Shown in pieces: positions 1 to 53,000 of a stretch of 64,000 bases of DNA; positions within the stretch are counted from its first letter, which is position 1; the number at the start of each line of letters is the position of its first letter. Source of the DNA: Tubulanus polymorphus (lineage: Eukaryota > Animalia > Nemertea); the NCBI RefSeq assembly GCF_964204645.1, contig NC_134027.1, positions 682,001-746,000 on the forward strand. Direction: 5' to 3'. The notes under the pieces are model-generated. The model made no database searches, was not told the DNA's origin, and worked only from the letters and a program-made list of their open reading frames with translations. The translations under genes and the position numbers were made by a program.

Positions 1-245
1 AGAGAAATAGTGGATGTGGTGTCCCTGGACCCCTACATGCACCATATAGAGAATTAGTGGATGTGGTGTCCCTGGACCCCTACATGCACCATACAGAGAA
101 TTAGTGGATGTGGTGTCCCTGGACCCCTACATGCACCATATAGAGAATTAGTGGATGTGGTGTCCCTGGACCCCTACATGCACCATATAGAGAATTAGTG
201 GATGTGGTGTCCCTGGACCCCTACATGCACCATATAGAGAATTAG
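1..245. repeat. 47-bp tandem repeat (end of array)
   Basis: Unit AGAGAATTAGTGGATGTGGTGTCCCTGGACCCCTACATGCACCATAT, about 5 copies visible. Confidence 0.95.
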
Positions 246-317
246 TTCACTGAACCAGAATAAGACTGACTGATATATTTTCAAATGATTTAATATTTTT
301 ACTTGTTTTTCTAGAAT

Positions 318-3300
318 ATGCCAAAAGCCATAAAAAAAACACGGGGCACGGGCCCCTCACATTCGAGCCCGTATAATAAAGTAAGTACAAATTTACTGCT
401 TCCATGCTTATTTATTCATCCAATACTTAGTATTTTGTACCCCTGGGTCCAGTTTCACAAAAAGGATTAACGCCTAAATCGATTTAAGATAAACTGAATT
501 AATGAAGAAATTAAATCGATTTAAGAGTTAAACCTGTTTGTGAAACTGGGCCCTGAATTGCATCTAGAATGAAAAAAAAGAAAAAAAAATATTGAAAATA
601 ACGTTGGTGAAATATTTCTGGATCTTTCTGGATTTCTGCTCAATGCATCGTTTAGTAAAATATCGATATTCTCTAAAAGTAAAGATATAAGAATAAAAAT
701 ATTGTATTGAATCGTGATTAGTTACTGTATGCGCTGCTAGTTGTTGCCCAACCCATAGCCTCATTTCTCTCCATTCTAAATTTGCATTGTTTAACATTGC
801 CTGGTTGCTATGGAAACTATTTATTTAAGTTTCTTTGTGGTATCCATGGCAACAGTAACGTTTAGGTAGTGGCACCAATTATGGGTCCCAACGTTCCCAT
901 GGCGATACATGAGAACATTTATCCTATTTTTGACCTTCATGACGTAAGATGGTAGTGAGTCGATGACGTCATTTTCGTCTCACCACTAATGAAAAAAAAA
1001 AAATGAAATGAAAAAAAAGGAAAAAATGGTTAGAATTACGTTTATAAAATTTTTCTGGATCGGCTAAATGTATTGTTCGATTAAATATCGACATTCTCTA
1101 AAATCATAGGCATCAATATCAAAATGATGATACAGCAGACTCCGCTTAACTCTGTTCTATTTGGACCATTAATTAACCGAATACCGACTTTTTAAATTTT
1201 AGGATTTTAACTTTAAGGATCAGAAAATGTGTATGCAATATCAACCGGGTACCGAGTAGGGTGGCCGAGTCTACTGTAGTCTGCTGCCCCCTCGAATCCA
1301 TTACCTTATTATCTCTCAATTTGCATTGTTTGACCTCGTCTGGTTGCTATGGAAACTATTTAGTTATATCAGGAACGGTTTTTTCGAGGTAACCAGTGGC
1401 AACAGGCGTGTCCGTCCTAGAGATAAACTGTCTGATTTCACAGCCACATCCGTCCTGGAGATAAACTGTTAGATAAACTCTGATTTCGCGTCCGTCCTAT
1501 TTCTTGTCATTGTATGAATATGTTTTCTCTTTTATAGAGAACTCAACAACAACAACAACAACAGCAACAACAACAACAACAACAGCAGCAACAGCAACAC
1601 AAATTTGATATTTCTATGTCTGGGATTGACGTAAGTTATCGTAAACGCCTGTTTGAAGTCATCATTCTTGAGCTTGAAACCGAAATTTATATATATAGAA
1701 TATTAAACCCTGCTTCTGCTACTGACAGGTAATGTCCGTCATACATTACTGCATCGTCAAATCTATACCAGGGTGCACCCAGCCTGATCGTTCGCATCAT
1801 CACATGCAAAGGGCTGATTATTTTGGAACCCAGTTTTTATCAGCTGGAACATTCTGCACATTCGACCATATTGATTGATAGCCCGTTATAGACGAGTGGA
1901 GAAAAACTGGAAAACCAGTTCAATGTTACCTCATGGTAAACATAAGGGAATTTCAATGAGTTTAACTCACATTTACAGAGTTTTAACGAGGTTAGACTGA
2001 ATTAACCATTATTCCATCAATGGTGTGTTCTGTCCATCAAGGCTCCTCAGACGCACCGAGCAGTCAAATGCAGCAGTAGCGCGAGGGTCGGGTGTTCTCG
2101 TGTGGGCAGACGGTCCGAACCCCAAAACCATTTACTTACACTATACAAATCAGATCAGGTTTTTAACATTGTCTTTGATTGTATTTTCAGTTTCTGCCGA
2201 CAACGCCGCCAAGCGGTACTTCTACGCCGGTAAGTGATAACTATTTTCTAATAAATCACGCTTATTTCAATTTGTAATTTGAAAATAGAGGGCAGTAGCT
2301 GTTTTGCATAAATTATGCTAATTAGGAATAAATTCAAATTCGATTAAGTCTCATCATCGTAGAAGTCATATATTAATGATGCTATCTCTACAGTTGTCAT
2401 TTAAATTAAGTGTTATATTTACTACTTAATTTGCTTCATGACCCAAAAGCCTCTACTATATAACTACTGGTTTTGTTCTAATCTTGGAGAATTTGCTGCA
2501 AAATTAACTTATCATTCGTTAATCAGTTTTTATTGAAAACCCGAATCAGTGATACATGCATTCATGAATATCCATCTAATATTTTGTTTTATTTTATCTT
2601 TACAGGATTTATCACCGATACAGCACGTGGACGTAAGACATTAAACATTGATCTTGAATTTTAAGTTCAAACTAATTTATTTTTTATCTCACTCGGGACT
2701 ATAGTTATTGCGTTCACTTTGCGTCCAGTTGTCTCGGCTAGTTTTTGATTTATCGTGTTGATAATTGGTTTATATACTCAAACTACTCAAACTCAAAATA
2801 TTGGCACAATTGGAATTAAGATGGCGGACTTGTATGACCATTTTTTTCCCCGGCAAAATCAGCGCTTTAGGATCAATTCTGTTGTTGTTATATTACATTG
2901 AAATCAGAGTTTAATATATATCAGTATAGAGCAGGTTTTTGCTCTAGTTATAAATAAAGTTATAAATAATCTCATGACATGTTCTGTATATGTGTAGCGA
3001 GTTTCAATGTCTTTGGTTCCTTTTAAACCAGGGGGAGTTAAATTTGTAAATGTCAGATCGTCGAGCATTTCAGACCACTTCCAAAGTGGGTCCCTGCACC
3101 CCTAGTTATACCGTTAATATTTTAATAATACATTAATATTTTTATTTGATAGAATATATTGATATACCATACATTGATATCGGTCTTGTAATTGGATCAA
3201 CAACCATGAGATCAAAACACAGCAAATATGAACCTGCTGTGAATCAATAGATTTGTGATAAATGTAATGAAATTGTTATTTTTCATATTGACTTTTTGAG

Positions 3301-6300
3301 TTAAGGGTCTGTTGTATAAGAGTATTTGGTCTCGCGTGTCAATGTATGATATCAATCTGTTGTATTTCCTCGTTCCAATGTTTAAAAGGTGTTCGTCACC
3401 TTATATTAATATCCTCCGTGTTTAAAAACCTGTGCGTATTACTTTTACCGTTAGATGGCGCCATAAGTGTGATATTTGATATATGGGATACCCGCAAAAC
3501 CAGCTATTCCACCAGATGGCGCAACGAGTAGTAGGTCGTTCGTTGTCAAAATTAGTTCATTTTCGATGAACTTTGAACTGGTTTGAAGAAGAAATACTTT
3601 CATTCTTCTACTCTGATATCGGTTTAGTTTTCATTAATAATTGATTCATTTAAGAGAACAATTCATTCAGATTTAATTGAAATGTACAAGAAAATCGAAC
3701 GCAGACGACCAACTATTTACTAGCGACACCTGGTGGATCCTCGCCTGCCATAAGTGGAATCCTCGATTGCCACAGTAAGACTGCGGGTATCCCATTGTTT
3801 GGCGTGTGATAAAGTAAAGTTAGAAAACGAATGTTTAACTTTGTTGTGAAATGAAAGCGTTTTGGAGATTTTTAAACCGATCAAATCAATATTTTGATAT
3901 TACGCTTGAAACCCTTCCCACTCATATTCTGCTTACTAAGTATATATTCTAGTTTCCGTGGAAATCATGGTGAGTGGCGCCATCTATACAGTGGAGTTAG
4001 CTTTATAAATCGAGTATGATTCGACAAGTGGCTCCATCCATTCCCTAATACTGAAGCGAGGTAACCAGCAGCGCCCTCATATACAGGAAATGAACGCCTA
4101 TCAAGTTTAACAATGCACGGTGTATTGACCACAGCGACCGGTGATAATTATATCAATGTTGATTAGCTATTGCCATAGACAGGTCCGTAGCGTTTGACTG
4201 GACCAGAACGGGGCCCCCTAACCAAAACAAATTTTGAAAACGTGCCCAGATAAATTGCCTCTGGGAGATTGATTAACGAGGTTTTGATTGAATGAACAAA
4301 TTTTAATATTTGTAAGTTTAACATTTCTGTTTTTAATTTTTCTTTGTAAGGAACTGAATTTTCGAACCCCCCTGAACCGCTTCAAGCTACGTTCCTGATA
4401 TAGTGCTAGCTATACCTGAATACTTTTCTCTTATTGAAATTGTCTAAAAAACCAGCACCTTGAACTAATGAACGTCATAATGAAAATGTTTAAAAATTCA
4501 ACCGTTAATGAATTTGACTAATGTATCTTTTTTATTTTCATTTCTAGCGTCAGTTTGCCTCAGAGGCTGGGTCGCCGTCGCTTAATGTAAGTATCAGTGA
4601 CGCCCTCAATCTCACATGCCTCACTTCCCTCCTAATGTAACCATTTTTATGAAATTCCTCAAGAAAATATATACTGATAATCTTAGAATACACGTTTTTG
4701 TACCCAGACCCCTTCATTCTACTGAACTACCGTGTAATCAGTACCTGTTGTGTTCATTTTCTGTTGCATTGATTTATATATTATTTCTATTTATAGTTGT
4801 CAAACAACAGCAGCAGCAGCAGCGCACCCCTCCCGCCGGAGACGCCTCCCGACCTGCAAGCAAGAAGTAAGTTCAGTCTTCAAATACAATTTCAACGCAT
4901 TCAATTTTTTGTATGGCGTTAAAACGGTTAAAGTTGTGACTAGTTTTCATAACTCCGTGACGTCAGGTGTGAGACAAAATACAATATCATATTTCCATCG
5001 AGTACCGGACCCTTTCCTATGTTTTTTGCCAATTTGGATTGAATGATCGCCAGCGGTTTTTCTATACGACCCGGCTCTGCTGTATTGCATTTAGCCATCC
5101 TTTTTCTTGGCGTTTTTTATAAGAAGGTGTTTGATTTTGTCTCTAAGGGATTTAGGAATTTAAGAGACACTTGTACTCTCTATGCAGTGAGTTTGTTCTG
5201 TTTTTGTTCCCTCGTGAATTTTATTTTTGTTTGAATCAAATCAAATCAGTGCATCTTTCTTGAATTGCGTGTATGTTATAATATTATGTAAGTTATAACG
5301 TTAAAATATCTGTTATATTTAAACCGAATATTTAATTGTTGTATTTTGAATGCGATAATGCCGCTCCCTGCTAAAGTCCAGCGTCGTCGTCGTGAGGGAT
5401 GCGGTCATCTGTTCGGGCCCTGATTACGTTCTGTGTTCATCCTGTTTGGCTACATCGGGCGTTATATGAGTTAATCCTTCCTGGACTTGCGGATTGTGGT
5501 CGGAAGATCTATGGGTTCGGGCCGAGAAGTCCCAGAAACAGAAAGTACAGTTTCTGTCGATGTACCGATTGATGTCTCTATTTCAGAAAGTAACAGCGGT
5601 CGCCAGCTGTACTAGCACGGTTGGTTTCCCAACTCCATTCTCTGAGGAGGATCGCTGGTTCTCTAGTGCCGGTCAGTCACCAGTCAATCAATGGTTCAGC
5701 TGGCATCCCAGGGTACTGAACATCCAGTCCGGTCCGGTCCAGGCATCACTGGGAACTGTACATCCAGTCTGGTCCGGTCCAGGCATCACTGGGTACTGAA
5801 CATCTGGTCCGGTCCGGCAGCTTTGAGCACCAGTCCATTCCAGACATCACTGGGTACTGAACATCCAGTCCGGTCCGGTCCAGGCATCACCGGGTACTGA
5901 ACATCCAGTCCGGTCCGGTCCAGGCATCACTGGGAACTGTACATCCAGTCCGGTCCGGTCCAGGCATCACTGGCAACTGTACATCCAGTCCGGTCCGGTC
6001 CAGGCATCACTGGGTACTGAACATCTGGTCCGGTCCGGCAGCTTCGAGCACCAGTCCATTCCAGGCATCACCGGGTACTGAACATCCAGTCCGGTCCGGT
6101 CCAGGCATCACTGGGAACTGTACATCCAGTCCGGTCCGGTCCAGGCATCACTGGGAACTGTACATCCAGTCCGGTCCGGTCCAGGCATCACTGGGAACTG
6201 TACATCCAGTCTGGTCCGGTCCAGGCATCACCGGGTACTGAACATCCAGTCCCGTCCGGTCCAAGCATCACTGGGTACTGAACATCCAGTCTGGTCCGGT

Positions 6301-9300
6301 CCAGGCATCACTGGGTACTGAACATCCAGTCTGGTCTGGTCCAGGCATCACTGGGAACTGTACATCCAGTCCGGTCCGGTCCAGGCATCATCAGGTACTG
6401 AACATCCGGTCTGGTCCGGTCCAGGCATCACCGGGAACTGAACATCTGGTCCGGTCCGGTCCAGGCATCACTGGGAACTGTACATCCAGTCTGGTCCGGT
6501 CCAGGCATCATCAGGTACTGAACATCCGGTCTGGTCCGGCCAAGGCATCATCAGGTACTGAACATCCGGTCTGGTCCGGGCGGCCTGGCATCAATGTTTC
6601 GAATTTGAAACATAGTTATTATGACTCTAGGTTTGGTAGAGGGCGCTATTCTACCAGACGCAGGAGTAAGGTCACCTTCACTGATATCGAGGATGGATCG
6701 AGAGATTATGATTTATTCTGTAGGAACCATCATCATTCATCAGTTCACGTCGAGGGACCGTTTAGGAAGTTCATGTCTTTCACGTCGAGGGACCGTTTAG
6801 GAAGTTCACGTCTTTCACGTCTAGGGACCGTTTAGGAAGTTCACGTCTTTCACGTCGAGGGACCGTTTAGGAAGTTCACGTCTTTCACGTCGTGGGACCG
6901 TTTAGGAAGTTCACGTCTTTCACGTCGAGGGACCGTTTAGGAAGTTCACGTCTTTCACGTCGAGGGACCGTTTAGGAAGTTCATGTCTTTCACGTCGAGG
7001 GACCGTTTAGGAAGTTCATGTCTTTCACGTTGAGGGACCGTTTAGGAAGTTCACGTCTTTCACGTCGAGGGACCGTTTAGGAAGTTCATCTCTTTCACGT
7101 CGAGGGACCGTTTAGGAAGTTCACGTCTTTCACGTCGAGGGACCGTTTAGGAAGTTCATGTCTTTCACGTCGAGGGACCCTTTAGGAAGTTCATGTCTTT
7201 CACATCGAGGGACCGTTTAGGAAGTCGTCACAATAATCGGGATTTCCGTGATTTCGAAAGTAAGATGTTATTGTCATTGTAAGCTACCGCAGTTACAGGT
7301 AAGCCTATTCTTGATTGCCCGGTTAGAAGTTCAGTTATTCGGAATTCTGACTCTGAATTTCTGAGGGGTAGCATCTGATTTCAACGAGGATCTAGTTCCT
7401 GCAGCAATAAGCTTCGGGTTGCCGCTCACAACGGAAGCTCGTAACACGGTTAGCCATGCCTGCAGGGGATATGCTATTTTTTACCCCTCAGCCATAGGAC
7501 GCAAGGGGTAAAAAATCACTTATGTCCGGACGGGTGGGCTGTTTGTTTTTGACATATACAGGTCATCCAAGATGGCCGCCACAGCCATTGCAATGTGTTA
7601 AATAGCCATTTGAAGCTTGTTATCGCTCTACAGACTTAAGTTTTTCATTGATTTTCTTGTGACTTGGTTTGTTTGTTTGAGGTGTGAGATGGATGAGCCC
7701 TATTATTTTTGACATATATTGGTCATCCAAGATGGCCGCCACGGTTGTTTTAATGTGTGAAATAGCTATATTTTGGAGCTTGTTTTCCACTGTACAATCT
7801 ACAGTTTTATACTGATTTTCTTATCACGTGCTATGTGGATTGAAGGCATAAGGATCGATGAACTCTACTGTGTTTGATGTGTGTAGGCCACCACAGTTAT
7901 ATCAGTGTCTTGAATAGCCGATTTGGAGCTTGTTACTGCTCTAAGATGTAGAAGCTTAGAGGATTATAATTTTATTCATACTTGTACTGTGGTTTATTTA
8001 TGGTGGTCAGAGGATGAGCCCTATTACAATTTTGCATTCTCTACTTGACTCACTGGTCAAGGGTTAATATCTAGTTTGTTAAATGTGGAGAAACTCGTGC
8101 TAAGTCCTCGGCAGGTCCCCATGTCGGTGAATCACCACCACCCCCACCCCCCGGACTTTGATCTCAATATTTTGCGTGAATCGTCAGCAGTTTCAAGAGA
8201 ATGGGCTCGATTAGGTGTGGAACAATTGGAATCCTCGATTGCCACAGTCGAACCTAGAGTATTAAGAGCTCAATTAGGTTCGTCTTTGCGTCTCTTCTCC
8301 GGTTGGAGTGCTCCAGTTTTGACCAAACGGAGGAATATTCGAGAGGTGCAGATTCAAGTCAACCATGCGGACTCCGTGAAGTACTGGTCCAGCTCCAGCT
8401 CCGACAGCTGAAGGTTCAGCTCCGGCTCCGACAGCTAAAGGTTCAGCTCTGGCTCCGGCAGCTCAAGGTCCGGCTCCGGCAGCTCAAGGTCCAGCTCTGG
8501 CTCCGGCCGCTCAAGGTTCAGCTCCGGCTCCAGCTCCGGCCGCTCAAGGTTCAGCCCGAACTCACACAATGCCATCTCAAGCATCTTACTTTCTCAAGCG
8601 GCTACTGGTGGTTGGAGAACAAGTGCACAGCTCCAACATTCTCGTGCCCCTTCTGGTCAGAATAATTCTAATTCATATCACTAAAAGGAGCTCTTCCTCT
8701 CGGAGAAACTCAAAATGAATGCTCGGGGCCAGTGAGAGGTTGTCTGCAGCAGGCAGCCACTGGTCCGTCGGTCCCGGGTCGTATCACGGAGGCTACTGTC
8801 TTCAATTCTGAACACCTCTCGACATGCGCCCGAAAGCAGATCAGGAGACACTAATCTCGTCAGCTCTCAAAGATCTGGCCAAAAAGAGAGCAATAGAACC
8901 AGTACGCGACGAAGCCACATCCGGCTGGTTTTCATGAAAATTTATGCTCCTGAAAACCACAGGGCGTCGATGGACTGTCATTCCTCGAGCGGCACCTGGA
9001 TATCCCGAGGCTTCCGATGACTAAAACAGGGAGGTAATTCAAGGTCTCCGTCGAGGTTAATGGGCGGCTGCATTGGACCTGAAAGATGCATATTTTCAGG
9101 TTCCTGTTCACCCGAAATCCTGTCAATTTTACAGAATAAAAGTTGAAAGGCTGCCAGTTCCAGTTCAGGTCTCTTCCAATCGGCCTCAGTACAGCCCACG
9201 CCCTGGGTATTTACCAGCTTGGGTCAAGTCCAGAAGGTACATTACAGTCCAGGGCTGGGTTTCATAGATATGGAAGAAAAATAATTCCAGGGAACATTTT

Positions 9301-12300
9301 GAAATTTGTCAGTTATAACCATGGTTTCTCATTGTTAGTATGGTGGTTGTTACCAAGATTGAGGATTTACCCCTAGGGATAACTTTGATACTCAGTCTAT
9401 GAAACCGGGTCCTGGAGTATTTGTCTGTTGGTTTACCTCGACGACTGGTTACTAGTACCAAACTCGACTATAGAATGTCAGGAGGCGAGGACCGCTGTCG
9501 TAGACTTAGTTCACCAGTTCCGCGTAAACTAAGTAAAATCTCACTTGATGCCATCCCAACAGTTCACATCTCCGGATCAGCACGGTCTTTCCGTCCATGG
9601 CTCGAGTAGCCAAACTTCAAGAAGCGTAGTTACCACAAACGAGAGGACAGCTAGTTATCGGTGACGCCTGTGGCTAAATGCAATACCGCAGTGCCAGGGA
9701 TCGTATCTCTGGCTATCTACACATTCAGAGAATATTAACTAAAACCATAGGAAAGGGTCAAGCACTACTCCGAAAAAAAACTAATTTTATTTCCAAAAAA
9801 TTATGATATTATATGGATTGCATGCTGTGTGGAAGAAGTTTTCAAAATTATTTAGGAGCTTATTATAATTTGAATGCATGAATTGAGAGCAATTTGAAAT
9901 GTATTGATATCCGAAAGTGTCTCCATTGACTTCACTCATTCACCTGATGAAGCTTCTATACATTAGTACCCAAAGCTTGTGTGTCAAATAAACTAGTTAC
10001 ACGTCCTATAAAGTACTACTTGTCTCGTTATATATTCTAAACCCCAGTTAACAATTCCAGTAAGTCAGGTTTAGGGAATAGATATTTAAACCTTGAGATG
10101 ATACCAATGTGATACAATTCCAGTAAGTCAGGTTTAGGGAATAGATATTTAAACCTTGAGATGATACCGATGTGATACAATTCCAGTAAGTCAGGTTTAG
10201 GGAATAGATATTTAAACCTTGAGATGAAACCGATGTGATACAATTCCAGTAAGTCAGGTTTAGGGAATAGATATTTAAACCTTGAAATAAAACCGATGTG
10301 ATACAATTCCAGTAAGTCAGGTTTAGGGAATAGATATTTAAACCTTCAGATGAAACCGATGTGATGCAATTCCAGTAAGTCAGGTTTAGGGAATAGATAT
10401 TTAAACCTTCAGATGAAACCGATGTAATACAATTCCAGTAAGTCAGGTTTAGGGAATAGATATTTAAACCTTCAGATGAAACCGATGTAATACAATTCCA
10501 GTAAGTCAGGTTTAGGGAATAAATATTTAAACCTTGAGATGATACCGATGTAATACAATTCCAGTAAGTCAGGTTTAGGGAATAGATATTTAAACCTTGA
10601 GATTAAACCGATGTGATACAATTCCAGTAAGTCAGGTTTAGGGAATAGATATTTAAACCTTGAGATGAAACCGATGTGATACAATTCCAGTAAGTCAGGT
10701 TTAGGGAATAGATATTTAAACCTTGAGATGATACCGATGTGATACAATTCCAGTAAGTCAGGTTTAGGGAATAGATATTTAAACCTTGAGATTAAACCGA
10801 TGTAATGCAATTCCTGTAAGTCAGGTTTAGGGAATAGATATTTAAACCTTGAGATGATACCGATGTGATACAATTCCAGTAAGTCAGGTTTAGGGAATAG
10901 ATATTTAAACCTTGAGATGATACCGATGTGATACAATTCCAGTAAGTCAGGTTTAGGGAATAGATATTTAAACCTTCAGATGATACCGATGAATTTAGCA
11001 ATTTTGAATGAATTAAACCAATATGAGATTTCGATCCTAAGAATATTGGAAGCTTGTGTTTAACGTTACTAAATAGTAATATTATATAAAGCTAGAAGGA
11101 CACGAGGGTATCCATTTTTTTGCCCGATCGCAACGATTAAATTTGCCGGTGAATTTATACGCCCGATACGAGTGGGTACCGATCTATCTATAAATCGGCC
11201 GTCACGGTGATTTCGTCGCCCGCCAACATTAAACATGTTCTATATTTACGCCGGTGTTCGGGTCACTTGTTAATTCGCTCGTCTTGTCGGCAAGCTTAAA
11301 AAGATTTAGAAAAAACTACATATTCTTCTTCCTGAATAAACTGGATTCACCTGGGTTCAGTTTCATGAGACACAGTTCAAACTGCTCTTGAATTTGAGTT
11401 TGTAATTAATGTATGTGATTATAATGAATTGTATTTTTTGTTTTACAGCACTGATATTTAGATTGAGTCGTGCGTTCCGGCGGGAGGAGTTCGTACGCTT
11501 ATTTTTACCGGAGTGTAAGTAGTTTAACTATTTTCATACAATATCATTTAGTGTGACGTGTGTTACTGATCCAGGAATTTTTCCAAGAGGGGGTTCATAA
11601 TAATCCTGACTTAAATCTCTAATGATAGCCGGGGCCTATACGGCATATTGTTTGGCCAAACATAAGATCATATGGTACCGGTTTTTTGGCTTTTCTCGCG
11701 TAAGCATTTACATTCCTTCAAGAAAACTAATTTTTAGAATTTTTGGTAGCTGATCAGCGGGGTCACGACCCCTGAAACCCTCCCTGGATCCGCGCCTGTG
11801 ATATCTCCTCAAAATCTAATAAAAACATTCAACAAATTAATGCTATAATGACGATATGTAGCCTGTTATATCTGTCTATTTGAATGCATTTGCATAAAGA
11901 AATAGTTGCGGAATTATCAACTGCAAATAACAGTGTAACCCTAGTGGGTCTTAAGAGACGGCCAGAGCCTTTTTATAGGTTGTTATGGCTCACAACCTGA
12001 CTGAGTTAGCTGTACGGACCTGTCAGATTAGTTACTTCTAGAAGTTATGTTAGTCACATTTTCTGACTATATTCTGGAAAACAGTGGAAGCTTGTATCCA
12101 CCCTAGATTAGAACCAATCAGAATAGAACCAATCAGAATAGAACCAATCAGAATAGAACCAATCAGAATAGAACCAATTAGAATAAAACCAATCAGAATA
12201 GAACCAATCAGAATAAAACCAATCAGAATAAAACTAATCAGAATAGAACCAATCAGAATAGAACCAATCAGAATAGAACCAATCAGAATAGAACCAATCA

Positions 12301-15136
12301 GAATAGAACCAATCAGAATAGAACCAATCAGAATAGAACCAATCAGAATAGAACCAATCAGAATAAAACCAATCAGAATAAAACCAATCAGAATAGAACC
12401 AATCAGAATAGAACCAATCAGAATAGAACCAATCAGAATAGAACCAATCAGAATAAAACTAATCAGAATAGAACCAATCAGAATAGAACCAATCAGAATA
12501 GAACCAATCAGAATAGAACCAATTAGAATAAAACCAATCAGAATAAAACCAATCAGAATAGAACCAATCAGAATAGAACCAATCAGAATAGAACCAATCA
12601 GAATAGAACCAATCAGAATAGAACCAATCAGAATAGAACCAATCAGAATAAAACTAATCAGAATAGAACCAATCAGAATAGAACCAATCAGAATAGAACC
12701 AATTAGAATAAAACCAATCAGAATAAAACCAATCAGAATAAAACTAATCAGAATAGAACCAATCAGAATAGAACCAATCAGAATAGAACCAATCAGAATA
12801 GAACCAATCAGAATAAAACCAATCAGAATAGAACCAATTAGAATAAAACCAATCAGAATAAAACCAATCAGAATAAAACTAATCAGAATAGAACCAATCA
12901 GAATAGAACCAATCAGAATAGAACCAATCAGAATAAAAGCAATAAATAGTGTTTTTTCTCGAGTAGTTGCCGAAGAAGCATAAAAATTTGATTCAATTTC
13001 ATTCAGATTTAAACAAACAAATCGAATTTCATTTCATTCAGCGCAAACTTCAAATCTAATTAAAATTTTGTTCAGTATGAATAAGTTGCAAATCATTGAG
13101 AGGAAAAAATAATTAATTGTGTTACTTAAAAAAATCACAATTGTGCTGTGTTTATCAAAACAGGAGACCACAGGACCTTTGGTCCTCTAGTATTCTTTTC
13201 CTAGTTATTCCAAAAACACTAAAACAGTCCAATCAGCGATGGCTGCCAGACCAACACGATTACATTGAAATCAAACTTAAGTAACATCAGGCGCCCCCTG
13301 TTGGAATAATATTCATAGCCGTAGCATCGAAACCATTCGACTTGTTGTTTAATGTATTTCTCTCTATTTTTATTTTACAGTTCTGCAAGTTTTAGAAGAC
13401 TGCCCCTTTGAGGATTTGGTGGGGGAATTCAAAAGAAACTTGGTTCCCGATAGGATATTACCACCACCGGTTAATCCTATGTCGCCCGCTGCTGCCCCTC
13501 CCCCACGTCCATTAAATTCGCCTCAGCAGCGGCCTGTCAGACAGCCGCCCCCGGCCGCCACTCGTTCGTCAGACAGAGTCCGGGGACGGCTGTTTGAAGG
13601 AGATCTGACGGAGGTAAGAATCTTTATTTGTTTTCATATTTTATTCAGGATATCAGTTGAAGTTCAGCAAATAAATTACCAGACCTGTAAACAGAAGAGT
13701 AGTTATAAATTTCCATTTGCGGGTAAAACCCCATAGTCGAAAACCTTCGGTTATTGATCTATATCTGCTTAAAAGACCAATGGTTGTACACACGAGTGCG
13801 AAAACTTATCGCTCAAACTTTGATTGTATCCATGGTAACGCGTACAGTATACTATGCGTGACTTACCGTTTCCTATCACTGGAATACAATACTGTTTTAG
13901 ACCATGAGCGCCATCTGCGGCGGTCATAACGGACTGAGTGGTGATTGGCTGAAATGCTCGTCTACCGTGGTGACGATTATTCGGTGTTACACGTGCAGCA
14001 GACACGTCTCTGAATATCTAACATTTGATTGTTGTAACTCATCGGGAAAAATATGTTTATGAGTCGATTTTTTGTCGAAATTTTGTTCGGCAGAAAATTG
14101 GCTGCATACGTCAAGAAGGCGGCTGATATTTGTATCGTGTGACCCCTCGTCCCGGTAATATGCCGACCCACGTACACCTGAGACCAGTTGCATAGTCAGA
14201 GCTTAGAATTAAGACCGTTTTAAGACCAACTTAGTTCTATAGCCAATCTAATAACTTAAGACCAGTCTTTAGATTTAAGACCACTTTTGGACTTAAGTCT
14301 TGACCATGGAATCGGCCCCAGATGCTTATTCCGCTGTATTGGATGCTGACGTGCTCGTGTCTTCCAGCAATGTTGTTATTCACCAAAAATATCATGTTTT
14401 GTTCGAATAACACGATTCATCTGAGTCTGGGTTTAACGGATGACACGTTCAAACAGAACTACGAAATCAATATCAGAAGTCCTTTTATATTGAAACGGTC
14501 CCAGAAGTCCCTGTTATAATGGGTACTTTTTCAAAAAAAGTAACGAGAACTCCGATGGCTTTCCGTATTCACCGAACTATTTCTATGAGCATCACTCGTA
14601 GATTAACCGAAACGCCACCTTGTGGCACGATATCCTAACTACGTATAGGTGTTTTATTTGCTGAATCGCTGGTTTCTCATTCTGATTTTTTATGTAGTGT
14701 TTAATTTTATACTAAACAAATTTTTCACTTTTTCTCTTTACAGACACGACCACCGCCAAAAAAAACTCGAACTAAAAGGAAAAGAAAAGTTGCGGTCGTC
14801 GTGGCTCCGCAGGGAGGAGGAGCAAGAGTGGTCCCGGCGGATGGTGCGGCTGACGAAGGTAATCGGGAGGAAGGGGAGGGGATAAATAGGAAGCGGCCGA
14901 GGAGGGATGGTGGTGGGGCTGGGGATGGTGCGGGTCCTGCTCCTCCTGCTCCTCCATCCGTATCTCGGGCGGTCACTCGTTCACTCGCCAAAAAGCTGGC
15001 GAGTGAACGAGTGGCCCGAGAGGTAGAGGTGGTGGCCCGACATACGGATGGAATGTGGGAGGAGCGGCTTCGTTCGGGGACAATTCCGGATTTGTTAACT
15101 GATTTAAAAAATATTCTTTCAGTGAAGGGATATTAG
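318..15136 (+). CDS. Spliced orphan gene, copy A (9 coding exons, 340 aa; polyQ, Pro/Ser-rich, basic NLS-like protein)
   Basis: Exons 318-380, 1538-1630, 2191-2229, 2606-2632, 4548-4586, 4797-4866, 11449-11514, 13381-13613, 14744-15136. Each follows a polypyrimidine-AG acceptor, all 8 donors are GTAAG, and phases (0,0,0,0,0,1,1,0) join into one stop-free frame: MPKAIKKTRGTGPSHSSPYNK/RT(Q18)HKFDISMSGID/FLPTTPPSGTSTP/DLSPIQHVD/RQFASEAGSPSLN/LSNNSSSSSAPLPPETPPDLQAR/TLIFRLSRAFRREEFVRLFLPE/FLQVLEDCPFEDLVGEFKRNL...GDLTE/TRPPPKKTRTKRKRK...LSVKGY*. Differences from copy B are mostly synonymous or in-frame. No known family recognised. Confidence 0.8.
446..552. mobile_element. PIF/Harbinger-like MITE
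   Basis: TIR GG(T/C)CCAGTTTCACAAA...TTTGTGAAACTGGGCC, flanked by a CTG/CTG 3-bp TSD. Confidence 0.7.
1133..1276. mobile_element. Tc1/mariner (pogo/Tigger-like) MITE
   Basis: TA|CAGCAGACTC...GAGTCTACTG|TA: terminal inverted repeats with a TA TSD. Confidence 0.7.
3483..3795. mobile_element. MITE-like element carrying a CTCF-like motif
   Basis: IR ATGGGATACCCGCA / TGCGGGTATCCCAT, plus internal IR TCCACCAGATGGCGC / GCGACACCTGGTGGA. Confidence 0.55.
4180..4398. mobile_element. Degenerate MITE
   Basis: Imperfect TIRs CAGGTCCGTAGC...GCTACGTTCCTG. Confidence 0.45.
5703..6590. repeat. 40-bp GC-rich tandem repeat inside the DIRS remnant
   Basis: Unit CATCCAGTCCGGTCCGGTCCAGGCATCACTGGGTACTGAA, about 21 copies with two interruptions. 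Also at ~52439-53326. Confidence 0.93.
6744..7225. repeat. 35-bp tandem repeat
   Basis: Unit CACGTCGAGGGACCGTTTAGGAAGTTCACGTCTTT, about 13.5 copies. Also at ~53480-53961. Confidence 0.95.
7477..8075 (+). mobile_element. Non-autonomous Helentron/DINE-like insertion within the DIRS remnant
   Basis: 5' TTTTTACCCCT...AGGGGTAAAAA inverted repeat, internal ~180-bp degenerate repeats (CATCCAAGATGGCCGCCAC), and 3' hairpin CTTGAC...GTCAAG followed by CTAGTT. AT-rich block interrupting GC-rich gag-like sequence. Confidence 0.45.
8386..8556. repeat. Short 18-24-bp GC-rich repeat (AAGGTTCAGCTCCGGCTCCGGCAGCTC-like)
   Basis: Source of the LKVQLRLRQ repeats in ORF 8303-8665. Confidence 0.8.
9253..9411. 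mobile_element. Harbinger-like MITE inserted in the DIRS RT
   Basis: TIR GGCTGGGTTTCATAGA / TCTATGAAACCGGGTC with CAG/CTG flanks. It sits between the RT GLSTA and YLDD motifs. Confidence 0.6.
9935..10035 (+). mobile_element. Penelope-like element 3' end / pLTR remnant with degenerate hammerhead core
   Basis: CACCTGATGAAG...CCCAAAGCTTGTG..CAAATAAA resembles the CTGATGA...CGAAAGCT..AATAAA end of Penelope pLTRs. GAAA is changed to CAAA. Confidence 0.45.
10050..10990. repeat. 63-bp minisatellite (about 15 copies; about 16 at 56787-57790)
   Basis: Unit ACAATTCCAGTAAGTCAGGTTTAGGGAATAGATATTTAAACCTTGAGATGATACCGATGTGAT. The inter-copy offset rises by exactly 63. Confidence 0.95.
12109..12940. repeat. 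15-bp CCAAT-containing satellite (about 55 copies)
   Basis: Unit TAGAACCAATCAGAA; source of the spurious EPIRI ORF. Confidence 0.97.
14181..14317. mobile_element. Harbinger-like MITE (degenerate)
   Basis: CTG|AGACCAGTTGCATAGTCAG...CTTGACCATGGAATCGGCCC|CAG imperfect TIRs with CWG flanks. Confidence 0.5.
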
Positions 15137-15190
15137 GTGCCTTGAACGCATGAGTCGTTCATGCGCGCCTAATATGCCTTCACTGAAAGA

Positions 15191-15589
15191 AAATCAACTA
15201 TAACATGTACCACATATTTTTTGATTTAATTTTAGTCCAATTCCACAATTATTTCGGCTTTCAATAGTGTCTTCAATTCTTTAAAGCCCAAAGCACCTTT
15301 TTGACTCAACATCCAGTATGAAGGTGGTCGGGAATTGGGCCTGTTTTCTTCGATTTTTGTATCCCGCCCAGCATACTGGTTGTTGACTCGAAAAGGTGCT
15401 CGCTCTGGGAGCTTATCAAAGGCAGGTGATGGGAAAGGTGCCATCACACACTCTCCTTTGATAAGTTTCCTAGAGTGTCACGGGCTTTAACGGATTGAAT
15501 TCACTATAATACCAATTTTCCAAAATCAATTTAATTTCTTTCAGGCCATTCTTTTTCCATGTTTTTCTGGTACATGTTATGGTTGATTT
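15191..15589. repeat. Inverted-repeat element just 3' of the orphan gene stop
   Basis: AAATCAACTATAACATGTACCA / TGGTACATGTTATGGTTGATTT (21 of 22 match), plus nested TTCAATTCTTTAAAGCCC / GGGCTTTAACGGATTGAA. Confidence 0.6.
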
Positions 15590-15759
15590 CCATTTTCGAA
15601 AATCCGGAATTGAAGCCGTTCGAAGTCGGGGGGATGGTGGTGGGGTTGGGTTAGTTTAGGGTTCCTCTCTGATTACCTTCTTTAGCTCATCATCCGTGCA
15701 GGTGGCGCTTGCTCTTCTAGCCGGTGTTCCCTGGGGTAAACATTTTAAATTAAAAAAAT

Positions 15760-16490
15760 AAAAAATTTAAAAAAAATTATAAAATCTTTAAAAATCTCAT
15801 CTCATTTCATCCAATTTATTTATTTGCGGGTGCGATCCCTATCGCACCCATTCATGTCATTCATCCAAAAAAAATTAAAAACTAAAAAAGAAAAAAAAAT
15901 ATAAAAATTTAAAAAATCTCATCTCATTTCATCCAATTTATTTATTTGCGGGTGCGATTCCTATCGCACCCATTCATGTCATTCATCCAAAAAAAATTAA
16001 AAAATTAAAAACAAAATAGAAAATTATAAAATCTTAAAAAATCTCATCTCATTTCATCCAATTTATTTGCGGGTGCGATTCCTATCGCACCCATTCATGT
16101 CATTCATCCAAAAAAAATTAAAAAATTAAAAACAAAATAGAAAATTATAAAATCTTAAAAAATCTCATCTCATTTCATCCAATTTATTTGCGGGTGCGAT
16201 TCGTATCGCACCCATTCATGTCATTCATCCAAAAAAAATTAAAAACTAAAAAGGAAAAAAAAATATAAAAATTTAAAAAATGTCATCTCATTTCATCCAA
16301 TTTATTTGCGGGTGCGATTCCTATCGCACCCATTCATGTCATTCATCCAAAAAAAATTTAAAAATTAAAAACAAAATAGAAAATTATAAAATCTTAAAAA
16401 ATCTCATCTCATTTCATCCAATTTATTTGCGGGTGCGATTCCTATCGCACCCATTCATGTCATTCATCCAAAAAAAATTTAAAAACTAGA
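15760..16490. repeat. ~121-bp tandem repeat (6 copies), each with a 9-bp-stem hairpin
   Basis: GGGTGCGAT-tcct-ATCGCACCC at ~15828, 15950, 16071, 16192, 16310, 16431 in A-rich spacers. Also at ~61920-62650. Confidence 0.9.
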
Positions 16491-16737
16491 AATTAAAGTT
16501 CTAAGTTTGTTGTTAGATTCTATTCAAAGAACGTTGTAAAGTTCTTAATTTGTCGTAAAAAACGTTTGAAAAAAAGAACTTCTTAAAGTTCTCAATCTGC
16601 CGTAAAATGCAATTGAAAAGATTATAACTCACATGAAAATTAAAACGATAAAATTATTGATAAATAATCATTAATAAAAATTGAACTTTGGTCTCGCAAT
16701 GTTTCCCCGTTATGCATTTTTTACTCGTCGTCAAACA

Positions 16738-23140: not shown

Positions 23141-23244
23141 AAGATTCACATGTAGCAGATATAATGGAATTAAGTATTGAGAACCGCAACTTAACAATAA
23201 ACCGGATCAACTTAATATAGTGCTGAGGACCAAAAATAAACAAT

Positions 23245-24030: not shown

Positions 24031-24199
24031 TCTGGAGTTGTAATAGTGTTGTGTATTTGCGTAGTGGATCAAGTGGAAGGATTTTAAGTGTATTTGGTGA
24101 CTTTAATTCGTTCGCATCCAACAGAATCAACAAAGACATTACAAAAAACGACAAAAAATGATTGAATGTAAATGCATTGAATTTAGGTTTGATGATCAA

Positions 24200-42869: not shown

Positions 42870-43673
42870 GCCATGTTACATTGTTCACGTGATGAAATAC
42901 TGAAATCTGATTGGATCCGTACATTCCGTGGAAGATGGCGGACGGGTTAAACCTGTCCTATTCTGACTGCGCATGCAGGTGGCGCAGAATTGGACAGGCG
43001 ACCAGTCTACCTGTCCCATAGAGACCGGTAACCAGTCTAGCCACCTCACGATCAGTCTACATTGAAAAACCATTACTGAAATATGGTTGACGGAAATATT
43101 CATTTTATATCAGATTCTGAAATATTTTCCCATATTGATTACAAAATTTCTTCTTATCTTAATAAGATAAATCTGCAAAAGCTCAACAATTTGAATTAGT
43201 GAAAACCGATGTGCGAAGTCGTCAATTCAGTAGCCTGATAGAGCCCGGTAACCAGTCTAACTGTCAATGTTCATTGCGCGGGAATGAACGGGCAACCAGT
43301 CTACGATGAAAAATCATTTCTGAAAAATTATGAACGGAGATATTCATTTTACTTTGAATTTTGAATTATCTTATAAAACTGACAGCCATATTAACCAAAG
43401 TATTAATAGTAAATCTGATAAAATCTAATACCGGTTTTAGAATAGGTGAAAACTGATTTATGTGATGCCGTCGGTTCAGAAGACTGATCCGTAGAATCGT
43501 TCGCCACTTTCTTCCGGTCCACTTACTTCCGCGTTTGTGATTTACATACAAGTAGTTTGAATGTTAAATGTATTAAGCCGCGTGTTGATTGGTTGAGGTC
43601 AGTGCGGTTTACTGAACGATGACCAGCTGTCAGCTGATCGAATCATTCGTTTCACAGACATTACGACGTAAGT
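42870..43673. promoter_or_regulatory. Putative (bidirectional) promoter and non-coding first exon of the orphan gene
   Basis: YY1-like AAGATGGCGG (~42932) and AACATGGCCGCC (minus strand, ~42877), ETS-like CTTCCGG/ACTTCCG (43511-43531), reverse CCAAT GATTGG (~43587), Inr-like TCATTC (43643) and donor GAC|GTAAGT at 43667/43668. Coding exon 1 (acceptor 47053) needs an upstream exon. Confidence 0.45.
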
Positions 43674-46075: not shown

Positions 46076-46123
46076 TTGTCAATCATCATATCAAGATTTG
46101 CAATCCCAGTTGCCTTCACGTTT

Positions 46124-46984: not shown

Positions 46985-47056
46985 TTCACTGAACCAGAAT
47001 AAGACTGACTGATATATTTTCAAATGATTTAATATTTTTACTTGTTTTTCTAGATA

Positions 47057-50000
47057 ATGCCAAAAGCAATTAGAAAAACGCGGGGCGTGGGGCCCTCAAC
47101 ATCGAGCCCCTATAATAAAGTAAGTACAAATTTACTGCTTCCATGCTTATTTATTCATCCAATACTTAGTATTTTGTACCCCTGGGTCCAGTTTCACAAA
47201 AAGGATTAACGCCTAAATCGATTTAAGATAAACTGAATTAATGAAGAAATTAAATCGATTTAAGAGTTAAACCTGTTTGTGAAACTGGGCCCTGAATTGC
47301 ATCTAGAATGAAAAATAAGAAAAAAAAATATTGAAAATAACGTTGGTGAAATATTTCTGGATCTTTCTGGATTTCTGCTCAATGCATCGTTTAGTAAAAT
47401 ATCGATATTCTCTAAAAGTAAAGATATAAGAATAAAAATATTGTATTGAATCGTGATTAGTTACTGTATGCGCTGCTAGTTGTTGCCCAACCCATAGCCT
47501 CATTTCTCTCCATTCTAAATTTGCATTGTTTAACATTGCCTGGTTGCTATGGAAACTATTTATTTAAGTTTCTTTGTGGTATCCATGGCAACAGTAACGT
47601 TTAGGTAGTGGCACCAATTATGGGTCCCAACGTTCCCATGGCGATACATGAGAACATTTATCCTATTTTTGACCTTCATGACGTAAGATGGTAGTGAGTC
47701 GATGACGTCATTTTCGTCTCACCACTAATGAAAAAAAAGGAAGAAATGGTTAGAATTACGTTTATAAAATTTTTCTGGATCGGCTAAATGTATTGTTCCA
47801 TTAAATATCGACATTCTCTAAAATCATAGGCATCAATATCAAAATGATGATACAGCAGACTCCGCTTAACTTTGTTCTATTTGGACCATTAATTAACCGA
47901 ATACCGACTTTTTAAATTTTAGGATTTTAACTTTAAGGATCAGAAAATGTGTATGCAATATCAACCGGGTACCGAGTAGGGTGGCCGAGTCTACTGTAGT
48001 CTGCTGCCCCCTCGAATCCATTACCTTATTATCTCTCAATTTGCATTGTTTGACCTCGTCTGGTTGCTATGGAAACTATTAAGTTATATCAGGAACGGTT
48101 TTTTCGTGTTAACCAGTGGCAACATTTAACAGGCGTGTCCGTCCTAGAGATAAACTGTCTGATTTCACAGCCACATCCGTCCTGGAGATAAACTGTTAGA
48201 TAAACTCTGATTTCGCGTCCGTCCTATTTCTTGTCATTGTATGAATATGTTTTCTCTTTTATAGAGAACTCAACAACAACAACAACAACAGCAACAACAA
48301 CAACAACAACAGCAGCAACAGCAACAAAAATTTGATATTTCCATGTCTGGGATTGACGTAAGTTATCGTAAACGCCTGTTTGAAGTCATCATTCTTGAGC
48401 TTGAAACCGAAATTTATATATATAGAATATTAAACCCTGCTTCTGCTACTGACAGGTAATGTCCGTCATACATTACTGCATCGTCAAATCTATACCAGGG
48501 TGCACCCAGCCTGATCGTTCGCATCATCACATGCAAAGGGCTGATTATTTTGGAACCCAGTTTTTATCAGCTGGAACATTCTGCACATTCGACCATATTG
48601 ATTGATAGCCCGTTATAGACGAGTGGAGAAAAACTGGAAAACCAGTTCAATGTTACCTCATGGTAAACATAAGGGAATTTCAATGAGTTTAACTCACATT
48701 TACAGAGTTTTAACGAGGTTAGACTGAATTAACCATTATTCCATCAATGGTGTGTTCTGTCCATCAAGGCTCCTCAGACGCACCGAGCAGTCAAATGCAG
48801 CAGTAGCGCGAGGGTCGGGTGTTCTCGTGTGGGCAGACGGTCCGAACCCCAAAACCATTTACTTACACTCTACAAATCAGATCAGGTTTTTAACATTGTC
48901 TTTGATTGTATTTTCAGTTTCTGCCGACAACGCCGACAACGCCGCCAAGCGGTACTTCTACGCCGGTAAGTGATAACTATTTTCTAATAAATCACGCTTA
49001 TTTCAATTTGTAATTTGAAAATAGAGGGCAGTAGCTGTTTTGCATAAATTATGCTAATTAGGAATAAAATCAAATTCGATTAAGTCTCATCATCGTAGAA
49101 GTCATATATTAATGATGCTATCTCGACAGTTGTCATTTAAATTAAGTGTTATATTTACTACTTAATTTGCTTCATGACCCAAAAGCCTCTACTATATAAC
49201 TACTGGTTTTGTTCTAATCTTGGAGAATTTGCTGCAAAATTAACTTATCATTCGTTAATCAGTTTTTATTGAAAACCCGAATCAGTGATACATGCATTCA
49301 TGAATATCCATCTAATATTTTGTTTTATTTTATCTTTACAGGATTTATCACCGATACAGCACGTGGACGTAAGACATTAAACATTGATCTTGAATTTTAA
49401 GTTCAAACTAATTTATTTTTTATCTCACTCGGGACTATAGTTATTGCGTTCACTTTGCGTCCAGTTGTCTCGGCTAGTTTTTGATTTATCGTGTTGATAA
49501 TTGGTTTATATACTCAAACTACTCAAACTCAAAATATTGGCACAATTGGAATTAAGATGGCGGACTTGTATGACCATTTTTTTCCCCGGCAAAATCAGCG
49601 CTTTAGGATCAATTCTGTTGTTGTTATATTACATTGAAATCAGAGTTTAATATATATCAGTATAGAGCAGGTTTTTGCTCTAGTTATAAATAAAGTTATA
49701 AATAATCTCATGACATGTTCTGTATATGTGTAGTGAGTTTCAATGTCTTTGGTTCCTTTTAAACCAGGGGGAGTTAAATTTGAAAATGTCAGATCGTCGA
49801 GCATTTCAGACCACTTCCAAAGTGGGTCCCTGCACCCCTAGTTATACCGTTAATATTTTAATAATACATTAATATTTTTATTTGATAGAATATATTGATA
49901 TACCATACATTGATATCGGTCTTGTAATTGGATCAACAACCATGAGATCAAAACACAGCAAATATGAACCTGCTGTGAATCAATAGATTTGTGATAAATG

Positions 50001-53000
50001 TAATGAAATTGTTATTTTTCATATTGACTTTTTGAGTTAAGGGTCTGTTGTATAAGAGTATTTGGTCTCGCGTGTCAATGTATGATATCAATCTGTTGTA
50101 TTTCCTCGTTCCAATGTTTAAAAGGTGTTCGTCACCTTATATTAATATCCTCCGTGTTTAAAAACCTGTGCGTATTACTTTTACCGTTAGATGGCGCCAT
50201 AAGTGTGATATTTGATATATGGGATACCCGCAAAACCAGCTATTCCACCAGATGGCGCAACGAGTAGTAGGTCGTTCGTTGTCAAAATTAGTTCATTTTC
50301 GATGAACTTTGAACTGGTTTGAAGAAGAAATACTTTCATTCTTCTACTCTGATATCGGTTTAGTTTTCATTAATAATTGATTCATTTAAGAGAACAATTC
50401 ATTCAGATTTAATTGAAATGTACAAGAAAATCGAACGCAGACGACCAACTATTTACTAGCGACACCTGGTGGATCCTCGCCTGCCATAAGTGGAATCCTC
50501 GATTGCCACAGTAAGACTGCGGGTATCCCATTGTTTGGCGTGTGATAAAGTAAAGTTAGAAAACGAATGTTTAACTTTGTTGTGAAATGAAAGCGTTTTG
50601 GAGATTTTTAAACCGATCAAATCAATATTTTGATATTACGCTTGAAACCCTTCCCACTCATATTCTGCTTACTAAGTATATATTCTAGTTTCCGTGGAAA
50701 TCATGGTGAGTGGCGCCATCTATACAGTGGAGTTAGCTTTATAAATCGAGTATGATTCGACAAGTGGCTCCATCTATTCCCTAATACTGAAGCGAGGTAA
50801 CCAGCAGCGCCCTCATATACAGGAAATGAACGCCTATCAAGTTTAACAATGCACGGTGTATTGACCACAGCGACCGGTGATAATTATATCAATGTTGATT
50901 AGCTATTGCCATAGACAGGTCCGTAGCGTTTGACTGGACCAGAACGGGGCCCCCTAACCAAAACAAATTTTGAAAACGTGCCCAGATAAATTGCCTCTGG
51001 GAGATTGATTAACGAGGTTTTGATTGAATGAACAAATTTTAATATTTGTAAGTTTAACATTTCTGTTTTTAATTTTTCTTTGTAAGGAACTGAATTTTCG
51101 AACCCCCCTGAACCGCTTCAAGCTACGTTCCTGATATAGTGCTAGCTATACCTGAATACTTTTCTCTTATTGAAATTGTCTAAAAAACCAGCACCTTGAA
51201 CTAATGAACGTCATAATGAAAATGTTTAAAAATTCAACCGTTAATGAATTTGACTAATGTATCTTTTTTATTTTCATTTCTAGCGTCAGTTTGCCTCAGA
51301 GGCTGGGTCGCCGTCGCTTAATGTAAGTATCAGTGACGCCCTCAATCTCACATGCCTCACTTCCCTCCTAATGTAACCATTTTTATGAAATTCCTCAAGA
51401 AAATATATACTGATAATCTTAGAATACACGTTTTTGTACCCAGACCCCTTCATTCTACTGAACTACCGTGTAATCAGTACCTGTTGTGTTCATTTTCTGT
51501 TGCATTGATTTATATATTATTTCTATTTATAGTTGTCAAACAACAGCAGCAGCAGCAGCGCACCCCTCCCGCCGGAGACGCCTCCCGACCTGCAAGCAAG
51601 AAGTAAGTTCAGTCTTCAAATACAATTTCAACGCATTCAATTTTTTGTATGGCGTTAAAACGGTTAAAGTTGTGACTAGTTTTCATAACTCCGTGACGTC
51701 AGGTGTGAGACAAAATACAATATCATATTTCCATCGAGTACCGGACCCTTTCCTATGTTTTTTGCCAATTTGGATTGAATGATCGCCAGCGGTTTTTCTA
51801 TACGACCCGGCTCTGCTGTATTGCATTTAGCCATCCTTTTTCTTGGCGTTTTTTATAAGAAGGTGTTTGATTTTGTCTCTAAGGGATTTAGGAATTTAAG
51901 AGACACTTGTACTCTCTATGCAGTGAGTTTGTTCTGTTTTTGTTCCCTCGTGAATTTTATTTTTGTTTGAATCAAATCAAATCAGTGCATCTTTCTTGAA
52001 TTGCGTGTATGTTATAATATTATGTAAGTTATAACGTTAAAATATCTGTTATATTTAAACCGAATATTTAATTGTTGTATTTTGAATGCGATAATGCCGC
52101 TCCCTGCTAAAGTCCAGCGTCGTCGTCGTGAGGGATGCGGTCATCTGTTCGGGCCCTGATTACGTTCTGTGTTCATCCTGTTTGGCTAGATCGGGCGTTA
52201 TATGAGTTAATCCTTCCTGGACTTGCGGATTGTGGTCGGAAGATCTATGGGTTCGGGCCGAGAAGTCCCAGAAACAGAAAGTACAGTTTCTGTCGATGTA
52301 CCGATTGATGTCTCTATTTCAGAAAGTAACAGCGGTCGCCAGCTGTACTAGCACGGTTGGTTTCCCAACTCCATTCTCTGAGGAGGATCGCTGGTTCTCT
52401 AGTGCCGGTCAGTCACCAGTCAATCAATGGTTCAGCTGGCATCCCAGGGTACTGAACATCCAGTCCGGTCCGGTCCAGGCATCACTGGGAACTGTACATC
52501 CAGTCTGGTCCGGTCCAGGCATCACCGGGTACTGAACATCTGGTCCGGTCCGGCAGCTTTGAGCACCAGTCCATTCCAGACATCACTGGGTACTGAACAT
52601 CCAGTCCGGTCCGGTCCAGGCATCACCGGGTACTGAACATCCAGTCCGGTCCGGTCCAGGCATCACTGGGAACTGTACATCCAGTCCGGTCCGGTCCAGG
52701 CATCACTGGCAACTGTACATCCAGTCCGGTCCGGTCCAGGCATCACCGGGTACTGAACATCTGGTCCGGTCCGGCAGCTTCGAGCACCAGTCCATTCCAG
52801 GCATCACCGGGTACTGAACATCCAGTCCGGTCCGGTCCAGGCATCACTGGGAACTGTACATCCAGTCCGGTCCGGTCCAGGCATCACTGGGAACTGTACA
52901 TCCAGTCCGGTCCGGTCCAGGCATCACTGGGAACTGTACATCCAGTCCGGTCCGGTCCAGGCATCACCGGGTACTGAACATCCAGTCCCGTCCGGTCCAA

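Follow-up and report, generated by a model that had tools for sequence, protein, structure and literature searches.

Schistosome MEGs are described, in the available text of two reports, as genes in which 10-20 very short exons make up most of the CDS, with a signal peptide and alternative splicing (10.1101/2023.06.21.545858, PMC4350168). The candidate gene analyzed here occupies positions 318-15136 (+ strand) of a 64,000-nt stretch of DNA, referred to below as the window, and resembles those genes in its run of short symmetric exons that can be skipped in frame. It differs from them in that its three short exons account for 10% of the CDS, and in that hydropathy analysis revealed no hydrophobic stretch for a signal peptide, NLS-like clusters being present instead. 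As both the short-exon majority and the signal peptide fail, assignment to the schistosome type of MEG was rejected.

Other points of comparison concern RNA structure. According to the part of the report available, balanced 19-nt stems are found in 44% of Drosophila Staufen targets vs. 3% of non-targets, and for human Staufen targets the stem rule was no better than UTR length (PMC3814352). Long hairpins in general satisfy this Staufen stem rule. The predicted 3' UTR of the candidate gene shares long, imperfect and balanced stems with the bicoid 3' UTR and other structures recognized by Staufen. In yeast ASH1, structured elements are located inside the ORF and right after the stop, as stated in the available portion of the source (PMC4615550); similarly, structure is predicted here both inside the ORF and just past the stop. 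The likeness to structured localization elements is one of predicted fold, the two copies of the gene being identical in this region and thus giving no covariation.

Drosophila hpRNAs, in the excerpted account, are mRNA-like foldbacks that undergo splicing and lie scattered among the gene families they target (PMC10317233). The locus shares with such loci (Nmy/Tmy, hp-pncr009) a foldback, a predicted mRNA-like spliced transcript, adjoining hairpin arrays and an amplified young gene, but differs in that the window contains no target gene to which an arm is homologous and in that the transcript model keeps an intact 340-codon ORF. Lineage-restricted orphan genes that lie in recent duplications, tandem or segmental, and whose copies undergo gene conversion constitute a general class. 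The candidate gene resembles its members in having no exon-level homologue, a disordered low-complexity product, near-identical copies and patchy divergence, and departs from them in the unusually large RNA structure predicted over the end of its ORF.

Exon chain and predicted product

Nine exons (1023 nt in total) join into a frame that is open throughout and encodes 340 aa followed by a TAG stop. The first-pass annotation had proposed this frame with uniform GTAAG donors, and its exon boundaries, translation and eight of eight donors were reproduced, as were the lengths of the five phase-0 exons (63, 93, 39, 27 and 39 nt) and the Q18 tract. The exons are as follows:

315..380, + strand: ATG exon (ATG at 318, coding part 318-380), acceptor at 315, probably an internal exon; basic N-terminus
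1538..1630, + strand: exon 2, 93 nt, phase 0-0, poly-Q (Q18; Q19 in copy 2)
2191..2229, + strand: exon 3, 39 nt, phase 0-0, Thr/Pro-rich (48 nt in copy 2)
2606..2632, + strand: exon 4, 27 nt, phase 0-0
4548..4586, + strand: exon 5, 39 nt, phase 0-0
4797..4866, + strand: exon 6, 70 nt, phase 0-1, Ser/Pro-rich
11449..11514, + strand: exon 7, 66 nt, phase 1-1, encodes the first half of the helical core (predicted)
13381..13613, + strand: exon 8, 233 nt, encodes the second core half, with one helix predicted, and the Pro-rich linker that follows
14744..15136, + strand: coding part of exon 9, 130 codons plus TAG

The donor was GTAAG(T/A) at all eight introns, every acceptor consisted of a long pyrimidine tract followed by AG, and a branch-point-like word was found at eight of nine acceptors. 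GC content was clearly higher in the exons than in their flanks in eight of nine cases, exon 2 being marginal. An independent scan of positions 1-15600 for a strong acceptor followed by the first GTAAG donor returned nine candidates, seven of which were exons of the model, while the other two lacked an open frame. When exon-like units were defined as a strong acceptor with a GTAAG within 250 nt, an open frame and GC ≥ 0.38, seven were observed in 11,450 non-repeat nt and none on the reverse strand, vs. a mean of 0.41 and a maximum of 4 in 300 block shuffles; the acceptor threshold of this comparison was chosen after the scores of the model had been seen, so that it is tuned on the model. The frame stayed open in 1.6% of trials with random exon lengths, and exon 9 alone was open in 0.2% of base shuffles. 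An open spliced frame, consensus splice sites and purifying selection (see below) were all found for the candidate coding gene, and on these grounds the candidate transcript very probably belongs to a real, spliced, protein-coding gene. Contigs of one run that we guess to be RNA (X5) showed only poly-A scraps on exons 1-6 (1 of 30 bins), which is no evidence on expression either way.

All nine exons stood as drawn in the first-pass annotation, but their total number is probably at least 10: since an acceptor precedes the ATG at 315, a non-coding first exon probably lies upstream. The further description of a run of micro-exons could not be sustained, given that only three of the nine exons (exons 3-5; 27-39 nt) are 51 nt or shorter and that symmetric exons are common generally. 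Exons 2-5 are indeed frame-neutral and skippable, with 15 of 15 skip combinations in frame, and exon 7 (66 nt, phase 1-1) is likewise symmetric; a special role for symmetric micro-exons was nevertheless not borne out, every splice site being consensus-strong, and no support emerged for isoform diversity. The uniformly strong splice sites would rather argue for constitutive inclusion of the exons. In human genes, 46% of introns are phase 0 and 23.75% of exons are 0,0, and phase-0 symmetric exons occurring in runs within disordered regions have been described as a general pattern, as reported in the part of the study available (PMC3632108). The prior for five phase-0 symmetric exons in a row is near 2%.

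The predicted protein contains 12.6% Pro and 10.3% Arg, the Q18 tract and eight S/T-P sites. FoldIndex was positive around residues 106-156 and negative at 16-46 and 166-276, in support of the first-pass view of a mostly disordered product with a short ordered core. Maximum hydropathy over 19 residues was 0.85 (at residue 226), i.e. no hydrophobic segment was detected, and there is therefore no sign of secretion or membrane anchoring. Exon 9 encodes two basic NLS-like clusters, a Gly/Pro linker and a low-confidence helical C-terminus with an NES-like Leu pattern. Motif patterns (NLS, NES, S/T-P and others) follow general consensus forms, and NLS- and NES-like patterns are frequent by chance. 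Single-sequence models placed one helix where exon 8 begins (pLDDT 68.2, low confidence) and, within the final 66 residues, four helices of low confidence (pLDDT 60.5). Overall, the product is likely a non-enzymatic, mostly disordered nuclear adaptor. Cyclin-binding, LxCxE, D-box, KEN, PIP and CtBP motifs, sought as short consensus patterns, were absent or unconvincing, and a possible likeness of the core to the F-box was discarded because the spacing is wrong.

Homology searches were carried out with single exons. Pfam searches with six of the nine exons gave four weak matches (E 0.04-0.23), all below cut-off. No match was obtained for exons 8 and 9 among 5.8 billion proteins, in the ESM Atlas or in viral contigs, for exon 9 among 1.84 billion representatives, or for exon 8 in metagenome contigs; among PDB sequences, exons 8 and 9 retrieved nothing better than E 0.037 (four weak matches in one search), and Foldseek found no match to the low-confidence C-terminal model. 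The first-pass annotation recognised no family, and this holds exon by exon, but orphan status is provisional because the core, with 21 residues in exon 7 and approximately 28 in exon 8, crosses intron 7 and the searches used single exons alone.

Second copy and divergence in the ATG exon

Positions 3-17821 are repeated at 46742-64000 with approximately 99% identity. The second copy of the gene and its candidate first exon are located as follows:

47054..61295, + strand: copy 2 of the gene, intact, 343 aa, CDS from 47057; duplication of at least 17.8 kb, offset 46.7 kb
43643..43667, + strand: candidate non-coding first exon of copy 2, putative, with an Inr-like start and a GTAAGT donor at 43668

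Copy 2 keeps all splice sites, and the only coding indel between copies is a 9-nt in-frame duplication in its exon 3. The copies differ by 16 coding substitutions, 10 of them at third positions and nine synonymous (25% expected, P 0.007), with a pN/pS of approximately 0.26, while introns differ at 39 of 10,300 sites (0.38%). The synonymous bias noted at first pass was recovered, but exon 1 accounts for 11 of the 16 substitutions. There, 13 substitutions fall within 56 nt (316-371) and none in 247-315 or 372-576, a density far from the background (Poisson P about 1e-19); a smaller cluster of differences spans the boundary between intron 8 and exon 9. The simplest cause of the 316-371 patch would be gene conversion from an older paralogue of which the exon, and not the intron, was still alignable. 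Five of the eight changed codons in the patch are silent, which points to long purifying selection on the donor copy. A conversion patch limited to an exon shows how such families can exchange a single functional module.

DNA runs of two samples covered all 30 bins of positions 250-5400. Among the 40 of 253 variants listed, five of seven sites in exons 3, 5 and 6 were synonymous, while the five variants in exon 1 were all amino-acid changes; three of these match copy 2, and two come from one X4 contig with a damaged exon-1 donor near the contig end. One form among the DNA-run contigs joins position 419 to 1504, and another shows 38 differences over 4210-4816, which suggests that further, older copies of the gene may exist. 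Overall, the gene is likely young, lineage-restricted and duplicated. Runs X1 and X4, from one sample, differed over 250-5400: X4 was thin (25 of 30 bins) and carried diverged forms absent from X1, the repeat spikes being alike. Contig depth is not copy number and was not used as such.

The donor of the candidate first exon (43668) is the nearest upstream GTAAGT and was chosen among approximately 50 donor-like sites in 30-47 kb; three GTAAGA sites nearer to copy 2 all lie within a satellite. Upstream of the candidate exon there are a reverse CCAAT box (43588) and CpG-rich DNA. Read in phase 0, the candidate exon has a closed frame and contains no ATG, so that the assigned start codon would be kept in a gene of 10 exons. 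In the same area, CCAAT boxes occur several times in a CpG-rich, promoter-like stretch (42500-43670), which also has a YY1-type motif (42932), and exon-like pieces on the - strand at 42240-42760 suggest a divergent transcript.

Predicted RNA structure at the 3' end and alternative readings

The end of the ORF and its 3' flank are predicted to fold into a large branched structure, nested inverted repeats filling positions 14950-15630. Its elements, and the tandem units that lie 3' of it, are:

14940..15630, + strand: branched RNA structure (predicted fold), reaching from the last 65 codons across the stop into the 3' flank
14940-15064, + strand: hairpin A, wholly coding sequence
15065-15093/15600-15628, + strand: closing stem
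15115-15190, + strand: hairpin B, spanning the stop, z -9.5
15191-15212/15568-15589, + strand: long-range stem
15264-15289/15482-15507, + strand: long-range stem
15292-15400, + strand: hairpin C
15401-15477, + strand: hairpin D
15747..16492, + strand: A-rich tandem units, six of 121 nt, each with a 9-bp hairpin

A stretch of 701 nt gave a folding energy of -328.5 kcal/mol (z -18.1, 20 shuffles). In the 691-nt fold, 478 nt were paired, forming four long hairpins on three long-range stems with no linker at the helix junctions 15064/15065, 15190/15191 and 15400/15401, and 196 pairs had a probability > 0.9, vs. 0-136 in 33 other windows of 691 nt from the 46.7-kb unit. The preference of the fold for the + strand is modest, since the minus strand, measured against its own shuffles, folds nearly as well (z -16.4). 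G-U vs. A-C counts were 15:2 with arms taken from the + fold, which makes the count biased; strand-neutral arms gave 8:3 (P 0.23) and 10:2 (P 0.04). The region is identical in both gene copies and gives no covariation signal. The last 65 codons were open in only 3.9% of shuffles, therefore protein code and structure probably overlap. Six balanced 19-nt stems with at least 15 pairs were counted in the element, three of them wholly 3' of the stop, using an MFE-based approximation of the rule in PMC3814352. Rfam searches of positions 1-47200 resulted in no match at the gathering score and 12 generic hairpin matches below threshold (E 0.03-0.75). The first AATAAA 3' of the stop is at 15757. We lean towards the view that the 3' structure works as RNA. 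Read-through of the TAG in hairpin B by editing was dismissed as unimportant, as it would add just three residues, and a 20-nt arm pattern that matched two contigs (L001 and L002; 53% GC, unrelated) over those 20 nt only was attributed to chance.

The reading that we prefer, with a probability of roughly 0.4, is that of a young orphan gene encoding a disordered nuclear adaptor whose mRNA is regulated through its 3' structure. The candidate mRNA would end in a branched structure of approximately 690 nt, likely bound by double-stranded-RNA proteins and acting in cis like a localization or translation-control element that sets where or when the message is translated. In the protein, the poly-Q, Pro and Ser/Thr-Pro arms would be phospho-regulated low-complexity regions, the helical core of approximately 45 residues would bind a partner protein, and the basic clusters of exon 9 would import the product into the nucleus, while paralogous copies may exchange short tracts by gene conversion, giving rise to the exon-1 patch. 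Invertebrate genomes contain many orphan genes whose products are disordered, so that by itself the gene model mainly improves the annotation; the added interest lies in the predicted 3' RNA architecture, which is large, overlaps the end of the coding region and belongs to no Rfam family. Should it prove real, it would be a candidate cis-element, open to testing, for localizing mRNA or producing small RNAs outside model animals. A bolder proposal is quite unlikely: an amplified germline or early-embryo module of a little-studied animal lineage, with a new nuclear regulator, an undescribed 690-nt multi-junction RNA element doubling as 65 codons, a basic N-terminus swapped by conversion, and its own flanking hairpin-RNA loci as in a driver/suppressor system.

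The gene could be real and its structured 3' region a DNA foldback or mobile-element remnant at the gene end, into which the frame merely reads. The genome is rich in palindromic repeats (e.g. the MITE-like element at 445-553 in intron 1, of very high contig depth), both strands fold well and one strand-neutral G-U test was not significant, all of which would fit a foldback, but at least seven unrelated arm pairs are nested with zero-nt junctions instead of forming one terminal pair. The structure is also without another copy in the 46.7-kb unit, the search with the 20-nt arm pattern yielded only the two unrelated contigs, and the low proportion of open shuffles for the last 65 codons (3.9%) likewise counts against this origin, which we regard as unlikely. 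The tail could also give rise to small RNAs, as an hpRNA- or pri-miRNA-like precursor, with the repeated block acting as a germline conflict module of an amplified young gene plus hairpin loci. Hairpins B, C and D have imperfect stems of 29-43 bp, a 260-nt tandem array whose hairpins measure 30-35 bp, with G-U bias on the + strand (8:1, 9:0, 10:1) and a 600-bp inverted repeat (27143-27741/29677-30272) lie nearby, and Drosophila hpRNAs are spliced, mRNA-like foldbacks in the account cited above (PMC10317233). Against this, nothing in the 46.7-kb unit, the gene included, was complementary to the arms, and Rfam returned sub-threshold generic hairpin matches only. Moreover, Drosha needs single-stranded flanks beside a hairpin, and the hairpins here stand in tight junctions that lack them; a small-RNA precursor is thus distinctly improbable in our estimate.

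As to the protein, it may be a member of a known family, either a small helical interaction domain or an accessory protein of a transposon, which was missed exon by exon because intron 7 splits its ordered part. The 21 and approximately 28 core residues per exon are too short to detect in very large libraries, the searches used one exon at a time, and the gene lies within a repeated block that has further diverged copies. Exons 8 and 9 nevertheless remained unmatched in the Pfam, protein, ESM Atlas, viral and metagenome sets, PDB matches had E ≥ 0.037, and inspection by eye of the ORFs of at least 100 aa revealed no evident transposase or capsid; membership in a known family is accordingly doubtful. 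The locus might, finally, be a silent recent pseudogene, or the tandem pair might be an uncollapsed assembly haplotype. The copies differ at just 0.38% of intron sites, no contig of the DNA runs spans the stretch, and no RNA run was listed as containing 250-5400, the latter being no evidence on expression either way. Both copies are intact with all splice sites kept, though, and the exon-1 patch (13 in 56 nt, Poisson P about 1e-19) is far above the allelic background, while DNA runs of two samples cover 30 of 30 bins with several exon-1 states. We consider this explanation highly improbable, and a false duplication would in any case leave the gene itself standing.

Repeats and other elements in the window

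The window is AT-rich (30-52% GC), laden with repeats and animal-like, with spliceosomal introns. Intron 6 of the candidate gene carries the following insert:

5001..9766, strand not assigned: decayed retroelement-like insert in intron 6, outside the gene, with a counterpart at 51737-56502

Imperfect inverted repeats (5001-5045/9722-9766) form the ends of this insert, which includes internal tandem arrays of 40, 35 and 27 nt and, near 9061-9530, broken pieces of a reverse transcriptase (RVT_1 with E 0.008, short of the curated cut-off). By its motifs, the insert (5001-9766) would be DIRS-like. Short palindromic MITE-like insertions are located in introns 1, 4 and 8 (445-553, 3520-3860 and 14185-14325, respectively), the first two with very high contig depth.

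The array at 24197-25174 comprises approximately four tandem units of 260 nt, each with two or three hairpins of 18-35 bp. It folds with -355 kcal/mol on the + strand vs. -280 on the - strand, with the G-U bias given above, and has no Rfam match; from its sequence, it looks like a lineage-specific pri-miRNA or hpRNA cluster. The arms of the 600-bp inverted repeat (27143-27741/29677-30272) are 82% identical and lie approximately 1.9 kb apart, with 36 G-U vs. 21 A-C pairs (P 0.06), suggesting a possible long hairpin RNA or an old foldback.

At 30377-34640 there are at least 12 related, short exon-like units with a cag acceptor, a gtatgt donor and short introns; nearly all have stops in every frame, and they probably represent a multi-exon non-coding transcript that arose via internal duplication. 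Tandem units of 265/406 nt at 19311-23146 carry an acceptor and a GTAATT donor around a stop-containing exon-like stretch of 147-158 nt, possibly a decayed amplified exon. Minisatellite arrays were found at 1-246, 10051-10991, 12105-12943, 16766-17308, 23225-24028, 31851-32370 and 44114-46985, with units of 47, 63, 15, 24/48, 46, 53 and 19 nt, and the array lengths differ between the duplicate copies (e.g. 56 vs. 13 units of the 15-mer).
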